A DNA stretch of 64,000 bases, from positions 3,808,001 through 3,872,000 of the forward strand of contig OZ245817.1 of assembly GCA_965228475.1 (NCBI GenBank), read 5' to 3'. Made by a program: the position numbers and the translations under genes. How positions within the stretch are numbered: the first letter of the stretch is position 1; every line of letters begins with the position of its first letter. Below, one piece after another: positions 1,484-35,897 of the stretch. Under the pieces are notes generated by a model. It saw nothing but the letters and a program-made list of their open reading frames with translations, ran no database searches and had not been told where the DNA came from. The DNA comes from Myxococcota bacterium. Its GTDB lineage: Bacteria > Myxococcota_A > UBA9160 > JAFDDA01.

Positions 1484-1539
1484 CCTTCACCATTCCGTCA
1501 CACAAACGGACCCGGTTTCTCAACCGATCCGCCTAGATT
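1484..1539 (+). promoter_or_regulatory. putative Pho-box array and -10 element upstream of porin gene
   Basis: Units CTTCAC(1485), CGTCAC(1496), CGGACC(1507), TCTCAA(1518) at 11-bp phase, then TAGATT at 1534; phoBR adjacent. Confidence 0.5.
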
Positions 1540-1604
1540 TCCACACGATTTCGTCATCGTATGCGGAGGTCGCCGACCTCCAGGAAATCTAGGAGGTGAT
1601 TCCA

Positions 1605-33450: not shown

Positions 33451-34419
33451 GGCACGCCAGGCACGCAGCTCGGTCACGAACTTGTGGACCGTCGCAAAGC
33501 GGTCGTCGGGGTCCTTCGCCACCGCCTTCATGCAGAGCTCTTCGAGGTCTTCGGGGATCGTCCGGTCCGGCGCGCGCTCCGAGGGCGGCACCGGGGTGAC
33601 GTTCCGGGCGTTGTCGCAGATCTCCTGCATGCTGTTCCCCTCGACCATGGTCTCGAGGGTCAGGCTCTCGTAGAGCACCGCACCGAGGCTGTAGAGATCC
33701 GAGCGGCCGTCGATGTCCGGGCAGCGTTCGATCTGCTCGGGCGACATGTAGGGCGCGGTCCCCTGGAGCTGGCCCTGCCCCGTCATGTGGATCGTGCCGC
33801 CCTCGATGCCCGCGCTCGACTCTTCGTCCTCTTCCTTGGCGTTCCACACCTTGGCCAGGCCCCAATCGAGCAGCATCACTTCGCCGAAGGGTCCCATGAG
33901 GATGTTCGCCGGCTTGACGTCGCGGTGGATGACGCGGTGGCTGTGGGCGTAGTCGAGAGCATGTCCGATCTGGATCAGAATGCTCACCATGCGGTCGAGG
34001 CCGTAGCCCTCGATGAAGTAGAACTCGGACTCGCGCGACTGGTCGATCACCTCGCGCAGGGTCATCCCGTGCACGAGCTTCATGGTGAAGTAGTACTGGC
34101 CGTGGTTGTTCCGGTTGAGCTCGTAGATCGGGATCGTGTTCGGGTGCTGCAGCATCGCGGAGACGCGCGCCTCCCGCAGGAAGCGCTTGGTCTCGAGCGG
34201 ATCGTTCACGAATTCCTTGCGCAGACTCTTCATCGCGACCGTGCGGCCGAGGTAGAAGTCCTTGCAGGACTGGATGACGCACTTGCCGCCCTTCGCAACG
34301 GTCTTGAAGCCCGTGTAGCGCAGGGACTTGTTCTGGACGTGGTCCGGAAGGGGTACGTCCGTGTCTTCGAGGTGGACGTCCGGGTAGTCGTCCTGGCTCT
34401 CCGGGAACTCGCGGGGCAT
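33433..34419 (-). CDS. cytoplasmic Hanks-type Ser/Thr protein kinase
   Basis: VAMK, RFLREA, HRDVKPAN, DWG, GTAPYMSPEQ, DLYSLG; no TM segment. Confidence 0.92.
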   Translation of the reverse strand: MPREFPESQDDYPDVHLEDTDVPLPDHVQNKSLRYTGFKTVAKGGKCVIQSCKDFYLGRTVAMKSLRKEFVNDPLETKRFLREARVSAMLQHPNTIPIYELNRNNHGQYYFTMKLVHGMTLREVIDQSRESEFYFIEGYGLDRMVSILIQIGHALDYAHSHRVIHRDVKPANILMGPFGEVMLLDWGLAKVWNAKEEDEESSAGIEGGTIHMTGQGQLQGTAPYMSPEQIERCPDIDGRSDLYSLGAVLYESLTLETMVEGNSMQEICDNARNVTPVPPSERAPDRTIPEDLEELCMKAVAKDPDDRFATVHKFVTELRAWRARRVRR

Positions 34420-34551
34420 GGGCTGAACGTATCGGGCGCACGGCCACGGCGCCTCAGTTCCGGACCCTGCCCGGGCCGATCCGTGCCGTCTCGAGGGCCC
34501 CCTGGCCCGTCCTCGAACCTGGGCCACCCTCGGCCCGTTCGCGCTTTTCAT

Positions 34552-34590
34552 TGCACAATTCTTAGGCAGCCCCTGCCGCGGAATCGGGCA
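34552..34590. promoter_or_regulatory. two NtrC-like binding sites
   Basis: TGC-N11-GCA at 34552-34568 and 34574-34590, upstream of the glnII sigma-54 promoter. Confidence 0.5.
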
Positions 34591-34649
34591 GAGATTCCTC
34601 CCGAACCGCCCGGAACGGCTGTAGAATCGCCCTGCGGCGCATCCCCGCC

Positions 34650-34664
34650 TGGCACGCGACTTGC
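34650..34664 (+). promoter_or_regulatory. sigma-54 (-24/-12) promoter of glutamine synthetase
   Basis: TGGCACGCGACTTGC. Confidence 0.85.
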
Positions 34665-34675
34665 CATAGTGGATC

Positions 34676-34807
34676 GTCATTCAGTGGGGGCTTCGGACGG
34701 GACGCCGTCCGGAACTGTGCAGCTCGGGGCCCATCGGTGCTCGAATCGCCCTCCCAGCTGATCAGCAACGGAATGAAAACGACCATCCTCGAGGAGGACG
34801 ATTCGAA
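34676..34807 (+). ncRNA. candidate cis-regulatory leader RNA of glnII
   Basis: 34741-34754 is complementary (13/14) to SD region 34793-34806; competing helix 34681-34691/34748-34761; internal hairpin 34694-34711. Confidence 0.45.
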
Positions 34808-35833
34808 ATGGGTGACAAAGCGAAGCTCGAATACATCTGGCTGGACGGCTACAAGCCGACCCAGAGTCTTCGCAGCAAGACCAAGGTGGTCGAGGACTTC
34901 TCCGGCAAGCTCAAGGACGTGCCGGAATGGTGCTTCGACGGTTCTTCCACCGAGCAGGCCGAGGGCAACGACTCCGACTGCCTGCTGAAGCCGGTCGCGA
35001 TCTACCCGGACCCGGGCCGGAAGAACGCCTTCCTCGTGATGACCGAGGTCCTGAACGCCGACGGCACGCCGCACGAGTCCAACGGACGCGCGACGATCGA
35101 CGACGACGACGACGACTTCTGGTTCGGCTTCGAGCAGGAGTACACGATCTGGGACGACGAGCATCAGCGCCCCATCGGCTTCCCGCAGCACGGGTACCCC
35201 GGCCCCCAGGGCCCGTACTACTGCTCGGTGGGCGGCCAGAACGCCATCGGCCGCGAGATCGTAGAGGAACACCTCGATCTGTGCCTCGACGCCGGCATCA
35301 ACGTCGAAGGCATCAACGCCGAGGTGATGATGGGCCAGTGGGAGTTCCAGGTCTTCGCCAAGGGCGCCAAGAAGGCCGGCGACGAGACCTGGGTGGCTCG
35401 CTACCTGCTCGAGCGCGTGACCGAGAAGTACGGCTACAGCATCAACTGGGAGCCGAAGCCCATCAAGGGCGACTGGAACGGCTCGGGCATGCACGCCAAC
35501 TTCTCGAACGAGCTGCTCCGCACCTGCGGCAGCCAGGCCGTCTTCGAGCAGATCTGCAAGGCCTTCGAGCCGGTCGTGGCCGAGCACATCGCCGTCTACG
35601 GCGCGGACAACGACCAGCGGCTCACGGGCCAGCACGAGACCCAGTCGATCGACAAGTTCAGCTTCGGGGTTTCGGACCGGGGTGCGTCGATCCGCATCGG
35701 CGCTCTGACCGTCGAGAACGGCTGGAAGGGCTGGCTCGAGGATCGGCGCCCGGCCTCGAACGCCGACCCGTACAAGGTCGCCGGCCGCATCGTGAAGACG
35801 GTGAAGGCGGCGAGCGAGCAGGTGAAGAAGTAG
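34808..35833 (+). CDS. glnII: glutamine synthetase, type II
   Basis: LEYIWLDG, LRSKTK, FDGSST.QA, FGFEQEY, PQGPYYC, INAEV..GQWE, GDWNGSGMH, DRGASIR, EDRRPASNADPY; 341 aa (GSII size). Confidence 0.95.
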   Translation: MGDKAKLEYIWLDGYKPTQSLRSKTKVVEDFSGKLKDVPEWCFDGSSTEQAEGNDSDCLLKPVAIYPDPGRKNAFLVMTEVLNADGTPHESNGRATIDDDDDDFWFGFEQEYTIWDDEHQRPIGFPQHGYPGPQGPYYCSVGGQNAIGREIVEEHLDLCLDAGINVEGINAEVMMGQWEFQVFAKGAKKAGDETWVARYLLERVTEKYGYSINWEPKPIKGDWNGSGMHANFSNELLRTCGSQAVFEQICKAFEPVVAEHIAVYGADNDQRLTGQHETQSIDKFSFGVSDRGASIRIGALTVENGWKGWLEDRRPASNADPYKVAGRIVKTVKAASEQVKK

Positions 35834-35859
35834 TTCACCGGCTTCGGTCGAGAACGACG

Positions 35860-35897
35860 CGGGCGTCCGGCGCGAGCCGGGCGCCCGTTTCCTTTTT
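35860..35897 (+). terminator. rho-independent terminator of glnII
   Basis: CGGGCGTCCGGC-GCGA-GCCGGGCGCCCG stem followed by TTTCCTTTTT. Confidence 0.85.

Follow-up and report, generated by a model that had tools for sequence, protein, structure and literature searches.

The leader of glnII in the window (the whole 64,000-nt stretch of DNA analysed here) combines a stable 5′-proximal hairpin with an upstream strand that is complementary to its Shine-Dalgarno (SD) sequence; judged by sequence comparison, it does not belong to any conserved class of riboswitches. The explanation that we favour, with confidence somewhat short of even, is a lineage-specific leader structure, in which the 5′ hairpin and a long-range stem may damp or delay translation of a sigma-54-driven mRNA for type II glutamine synthetase (GSII). 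The inverted repeat that forms this stem is real and occupies a plausible regulatory position; repeats of this quality are no more frequent in the genome than in shuffled sequence, and chance is a serious rival. As the evidence stands, the value of the analysis is mostly negative, the candidate being no conserved riboswitch.

The gene itself (34808..35833, + strand) encodes a 341-aa GSII with the Pfam domains Gln-synt_N and Gln-synt_C, and the top NCBIfam match of its product is GlnII NF041605 (407.6 bits, under the model's cut-off of 500). The gene starts where an earlier note on this DNA had placed a GSII start, after the leader. An intrinsic-terminator-like hairpin identified by a terminator scan lies 3′ of glnII (35859..35888, + strand) and makes the gene monocistronic. 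Downstream, a methyltransferase gene is convergent with glnII; the upstream neighbour is a divergent Ser/Thr kinase gene, whose in-frame ATG at 34419 was taken as the start of the Pfam query. The genome also carries a second, longer GS gene.

The earlier note had described a clean sigma-54 promoter ahead of the leader and Ntr-type control of the gene. The motif TGGCAC-N5-TTGC is indeed found at 34650..34664 on the + strand, and we take it to be a canonical sigma-54 (-24/-12) promoter. The promoter's exact 15-mer is present as a single copy in the genome, which contains 24 occurrences of the strict sigma-54 pattern, and of 37 clade loci, all but one (36) have the strict motif ahead of glnII. 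Together, the motif, its conservation in orthologues and the presence of rpoN in the genome support the control of glnII by sigma-54, in keeping with the earlier proposal. A direct 10-nt repeat, GAATCGCCCT, flanks this promoter, with one copy at 34625-34634 and another at 34743-34752, where it recurs in the anti-SD strand.

From the promoter's geometry, we infer a 5′ untranslated leader of about 132 nt (34676..34807, + strand), whose presumed transcription start is placed about 12 nt past the GC of the -12 element. The leader has a GC content of 0.61, compared to 0.705 for the genome. Its 5′-proximal hairpin, first noticed at 34694-34711, extends to 9 bp with a GACG loop (34692..34713, + strand; -15.7 kcal/mol) and is present in every predicted fold. 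The leader contains neither a sigma-70-like promoter nor a terminator on the + strand, and a transcription attenuator was rejected for want of such a terminator. A leader peptide was also rejected, as the ATG at 34774 lacks an SD sequence that could serve it and opens an out-of-frame ORF (GTG 34737 to 34988). The SD sequence is also covered by a local palindromic hairpin at 34782-34802, which has the core CCUC-GAG-GAGG and an energy of -4.9 kcal/mol; the terminator scan reported it on the minus strand, where there is no gene for it to terminate. Two metagenomic contigs overlap the region. A 529-nt contig from a plastisphere metagenome (run X4) spans 34614-35140 with 15 differences and 0 gaps over 527 nt, and a contig from a marine metagenome (run X7) spans 34400-34784, its 385 nt showing 19 differences and 14 gaps. 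The contigs of all four runs compared carry the label 'DNA?' and are therefore silent on the start or strand of a transcript.

We now consider the long-range stem. The anti-SD segment (34741..34754, + strand), whose 3′ part overlaps a C-rich box, is complementary at 13 of 14 positions to 34793..34806 (+ strand), a 3′ helix strand comprising the SD sequence (GGAGG, 34793-34797) and the spacer. The sole mismatch is 34749/34798, and the complement across the SD sequence that had been reported for this leader is therefore confirmed. The helix has an energy of -20.0 kcal/mol. When 34676-34830 is folded, the helix is present in both the MFE and the centroid structures with a pair probability of 0.96 (0.96-0.99 across 34793-34797), so that the stem previously described as able to occlude the SD sequence is formed in silico. 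The SD sequence is thus predicted to be base-paired in the ensemble of this segment, an outcome that depends on the construct. Constrained ensembles of the same segment have free energies of -59.3 kcal/mol for the occluded state and -51.1 kcal/mol for the alternative pairing proposed in the earlier note, and the occluded state is favoured by 8.2 kcal/mol.

The predicted structure changes as the transcript is extended. For a transcript ending at 34762, the MFE fold is the alternative helix. For transcripts ending at 34775-34810, the C-rich strand is held in other pairings, and the helix between the anti-SD and SD strands is absent from the MFE folds of transcripts ending at 34800 or 34810. The SD-occluding helix becomes the MFE structure in transcripts ending at 34830 and 34860. 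We infer the following kinetic scheme. During transcription, upstream G-rich stretches are predicted to hold the C-rich strand first, and early ribosomes could load ahead of RNA refolding. The leader would most likely act as a simple structure in cis: its 5′ hairpin would protect the mRNA and, after RNA synthesis has passed the whole leader and the initial codons, the long-range stem would reduce or postpone translation initiation.

The main rival of this reading of the leader stem is that the inverted repeat arose by chance in an ordinary long leader, with no role beyond that of any GC-rich 5′ UTR, which we regard as somewhat unlikely. The probability of finding such a repeat was estimated in two ways. 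As an exact match the complement is rare, which speaks for the leader stem: dinucleotide shuffling of the leader produced an ungapped complement of at least 13 of 14 positions in 4 trials of 3000. Against a genomic background (70.5% GC) of 2408 crudely called gene starts with an SD sequence, a 13/14 ungapped complement was found at three, glnII included. The genome rate equals the shuffle rate and consequently no excess over chance is shown; moreover, the feature was picked from the whole window, so a per-gene rate of 0.1% is not compelling. Judged by duplex energy, the pairing is less rare. The value for the glnII leader, -22.0 kcal/mol, was matched or beaten by 48 of 2000 shuffles, and a duplex between the RBS and upstream RNA with this energy or better was found at 56% of gene starts.

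The accessibility of the ribosome binding site likewise favours chance. The predicted cost of opening positions -18..+5 is 11.3 kcal/mol for glnII, under the genome median of 13.7 kcal/mol. The fraction of genes that are as occluded as glnII, or more so, is 71% of 600 sampled genes and 68% of the 495 genes whose upstream DNA is crudely non-coding. By opening energy at these crudely called gene starts, the occlusion of the glnII SD sequence is not above genomic background, and in a 70% GC genome predicted SD occlusion lacks discriminating power. The stability of the whole leader is also ordinary (z = -0.66; 44 of 200 shuffles fold equally well), another point in favour of chance. Against chance stands the placement of the three genome-wide cases. 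One lies in coding-like DNA, but the other two fall in leaders that are truly intergenic, and both genes concerned, glnII and a porin-like gene after pstB, are connected with nutrient supply. The second of these is itself inside the window (1529-1596, + strand), where 1529-1542 pairs with 1583-1596 as another 13/14 inverted repeat over a ribosome site. It encloses an inner hairpin (1566-1582) and is located upstream of the porin-like gene, which has a signal peptide and a likely GTG start at 1605 and directly follows pstB.

In a translational riboswitch, the expression platform consists of SD, anti-SD and anti-anti-SD strands, as in the Escherichia coli thiM TPP riboswitch. The glnII leader resembles such platforms in that its upstream C-rich strand can cover the SD sequence and might itself be competed for by a G-rich strand lying still further 5′. 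Unlike them, it has no aptamer, no family match and no conservation, and its competing strand is at chance level. The earlier note had proposed that the anti-SD strand can instead pair with an upstream strand (34681-34691 with 34748-34761), closing a junction and freeing the ribosome binding site. This pairing exists, with an energy of -14.4 kcal/mol, but it is imperfect, consisting of six contiguous pairs (one of them G-U) followed, after a mismatch, by a single pair and, beyond a 3-nt bulge, by three more. The best real upstream partner of the anti-SD segment has an energy of -19.0 kcal/mol, and 1081 of 2000 shuffles of the upstream leader contain a partner that equals or betters it. The alternative pairing is therefore at chance level, a further point in favour of a chance repeat.

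Family searches covered the window and its relatives. A cmscan of 34000-35500, on both strands, against 4227 Rfam families (RNA thermometers included) returned 0 matches at E ≤ 10, and the loci of 10 relatives returned 0 Rfam matches at E ≤ 1. The cyanobacterial glutamine riboswitch (glnA RNA and Downstream-peptide motifs) is reported to control the gifB leader (PMC6212724). The two systems share a nitrogen-assimilation target and leader-based control. They differ in that the window has no covariance-model match at E ≤ 10 and in that the cyanobacterial target is a glutamine synthetase-inactivating factor and not a glutamine synthetase gene.

The glnII leaders of the clade evolve rapidly, and most of them are long, as the favoured reading would have it. 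Orthologues that are 81-87% identical in protein have leaders of 61-333 nt, which are alignable only at the SD sequence and the start codon. A DNA search with the leader against 41 relatives and 401 sampled genomes of the phylum found no homologue and returned short matches only. One of these, a 22-nt identity, lies inside a 702-aa ORF, where it reads as an acidic coding stretch, and was taken as chance; the remaining short matches lie around the promoter. Local alignment of the window's leader to those of 9 relatives found no similarity beyond shuffles after correction for 9 tests, the best comparison being equalled in 13 of 300. When the window's helix was placed on an alignment of 16 leaders, 56.1% of cells were paired, compared to 52.3% in shuffles and 37-54% in slid controls; these leaders are not alignable, and the result shows the absence of a shared helix rather than the loss of a homologous one. 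The comparison thus produced the outcome that the earlier note had named as refuting its switch, helices that orthologous leaders do not conserve. The helix was missing from every orthologous leader examined, which is also what a chance repeat would predict.

A duplex between the ribosome binding site and the leader beats shuffles in only 2 of 38 sigma-54-type glnII leaders drawn from many phyla, which weighs against the favoured reading; the two are the window's (z = -2.31; 8 of 300 shuffles) and that of L050 (z = -1.91). Among 31 distinct clade leaders, the duplex stands out only in the window (z = -2.24) and in L197 (z = -2.63). The MFE fold of the leader of one relative, L028, does pair the SD sequence with a similar-looking segment, which favours the leader stem. 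If the stem does gate translation, the quick turnover of the clade's glnII leaders would be that of a fast-evolving regulatory RNA.

These results bear directly on the proposal that the leader is a riboswitch, or another two-state switch, which finds no support in the Rfam searches, in the search for leader homologues, in the pairing of the helix across orthologous leaders, in a model of the relatives' conserved leader core or in the alternative pairing. A metabolite-binding riboswitch would sense glutamine, glutamate or 2-oxoglutarate through an aptamer formed by the junction closed by 34681-34691/34748-34761. The three-strand geometry is possible and glnII is a plausible target, but the families searched gave no match, no leader homologue was found among the 41 relatives or 401 genomes of the phylum, the leaders of close orthologues cannot be aligned, the helix that would close the junction is imperfect and at chance level, and the ensemble prefers the occluded state by about 8 kcal/mol. 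As no conserved aptamer was found, a riboswitch is already disfavoured, and we consider it very improbable.

Relatives of the window carry a different kind of leader. Eight homologous glnII leaders of about 290 nt, ranging from 276 to 314 nt (L197, L201, L202, L204, L205, L207, L209 and L211; for example L205:2509-2796, minus strand), contain invariant blocks separated by variable stretches. Seven of them come from whole genomes, every one of which is assigned to genus g29, as are L201 to L211. This long-leader family of a related genus is undescribed and has no Rfam match. RNAalifold applied to the eight leaders predicted 46 pairs, 10 of them with compensatory changes; a GAAUCG:CGAUUC helix shows compensatory changes in L207 and L202. 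A G-rich block and a C-rich box form a 10-bp helix; because both strands are nearly invariant, covariation leaves this helix unproven. In 7 of the 8, the ribosome site likewise finds its best partner in this G-rich block. Columns 352-372 of alignment A1 contain a small hairpin without variation (GGU.CCC ... GGG.ACC), built from the 3′ half of the SD sequence together with the first codons and enclosing the start codon; the flank of the window's ribosome site has no such hairpin.

We compared the window's leader to this family using a covariance model of its 83-nt core (R1), which scores its own 8 members at 67-89 bits. Beyond its members, the model has a weak match to L198 (E = 0.032). On the window's glnII leader it found nothing at E ≤ 10 with default filters and, with filters off, a best score of 3.4 bits (E = 0.22). 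The window's leader and the long leaders are alike in having a sigma-54 promoter, a long leader, a C-rich box and the GAAUCG/CGAUUC helix words, and in having a strand, either C-rich or G-rich, that can base-pair with the ribosome site. They are unlike in this low core score, in the order of their elements and in the flank of the ribosome site.

The C-rich box extends beyond the long leaders. In the form CUCCC[A/U]G or CUCC(C)AAG, it is present in 21 of 32 distinct clade leaders, where shuffles yield 1.8 expected and at most 6 in 500 trials; because these sequences are related and the motif was chosen post hoc, the count is a lead and not a result. The window's copy (34748-34757) overlaps the anti-SD strand, and other copies are found in 20 clade loci. 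Read off the leaders, the box lies 40-110 nt from the start codon whatever the leader's length, and its distance to the promoter varies widely. In short leaders, the box forms a small hairpin near the promoter. It is absent from 11 of the 32, and some orthologues from the same genus have short leaders without it. That the window's anti-SD strand coincides with the one box recurring across clade leaders counts against a chance repeat.

A broader reading is that the window's anti-SD strand is a local form of a clade-wide leader module that gates GSII translation via competing pairings, set by a nitrogen-status factor, which we hold to be distinctly unlikely. In this Myxococcota-labelled order, the module would consist of a C-rich, CUCCCAG-type box and the GAAUCG/CGAUUC helix words, located 40-110 nt ahead of glnII. 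The G-rich block of the long leaders would pair with either the box or the ribosome site, whereas in the window it is the box that would pair with the ribosome site. If true, such a module would place type II glutamine synthetase under a new class of post-transcriptional control.

Alternatively, a trans-acting factor could decide whether the SD sequence is free. Here, a nitrogen-sensing protein or small RNA would bind the C-rich box or its G-rich partners, with a logic like that of GstI. The recurrence of the box in several subclades at a restricted distance from the start codon is consistent with such a factor, as is the G-rich block of the eight long leaders, which can pair with the box and is the best ribosome-site partner in most of them. 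The post hoc definition of the motif, the kinship of the sequences, the leaders that do not have the box (including short ones in the same genus) and the nearly invariant helix strands of the relatives, for which covariation offers no proof, all weigh against it, and no candidate factor emerged.

GstI is described in PMC8829014 and PMC3596328 as a protein inhibitor of glnII translation in rhizobia, and it provides a precedent for the translational control of glnII. The gene family is the same, and rhizobial glnII combines Ntr-type transcription with a second layer at translation. If the stem gates translation, GSII in the window would similarly have a second layer over sigma-54 activation. This precedent favours the leader stem as well as a trans-acting factor, but the two systems belong to different phyla (the records of the window's relatives are labelled Myxococcota), and the window's divergent neighbour is the Ser/Thr kinase gene and not a small gstI-like gene. 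A search for a gstI-like gene on the minus strand of the intergenic region found only ORFs of 34 and 39 aa, neither of which matched the NCBIfam models searched at E ≤ 0.1. Overall, we judge a trans-acting switch to be rather unlikely. The original papers on GstI are reportedly Spinosa 2000 and Napolitani 2004.

The repeats around glnII could also act as DNA. A DNA operator would be composed of the inverted 8-mers at 34741-34748/34799-34806 and the direct 10-mers at 34625-34634/34743-34752, which flank the promoter and the gene start. The 10-mer GAATCGCCCT has 16 copies in the genome where 9.1 are expected, two of them 118 nt apart at glnII, and related words recur in the leaders of relatives. 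Dimeric operators seldom have half-sites as far apart as the inverted 8-mers, however, which are spaced by 50 nt, and there is neither genome-wide enrichment nor a known regulator. In the relatives, moreover, these words make up a helix of RNA in which changes are compensatory. An operator at this position is highly unlikely in our estimate, and a lineage-specific leader structure remains the preferred explanation.

GSII has a patchy distribution. Within the order, 53 of 193 genomes carry it at E ≤ 1e-100; it was not found with the query in either of the 2 other genomes of the window's own family (89% and 81% complete) and is present in 42 of 68 genomes of one sister family. The best protein identities to the window's GSII are those of L196 (87%) and of L106 and L197 (both 86%). 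In a quick tree, from which five duplicate rows were dropped, the window's GSII is located inside the order's clade on a long branch with an unresolved placement. This patchiness, together with nesting on a long branch, suggests possible transfer or repeated loss.
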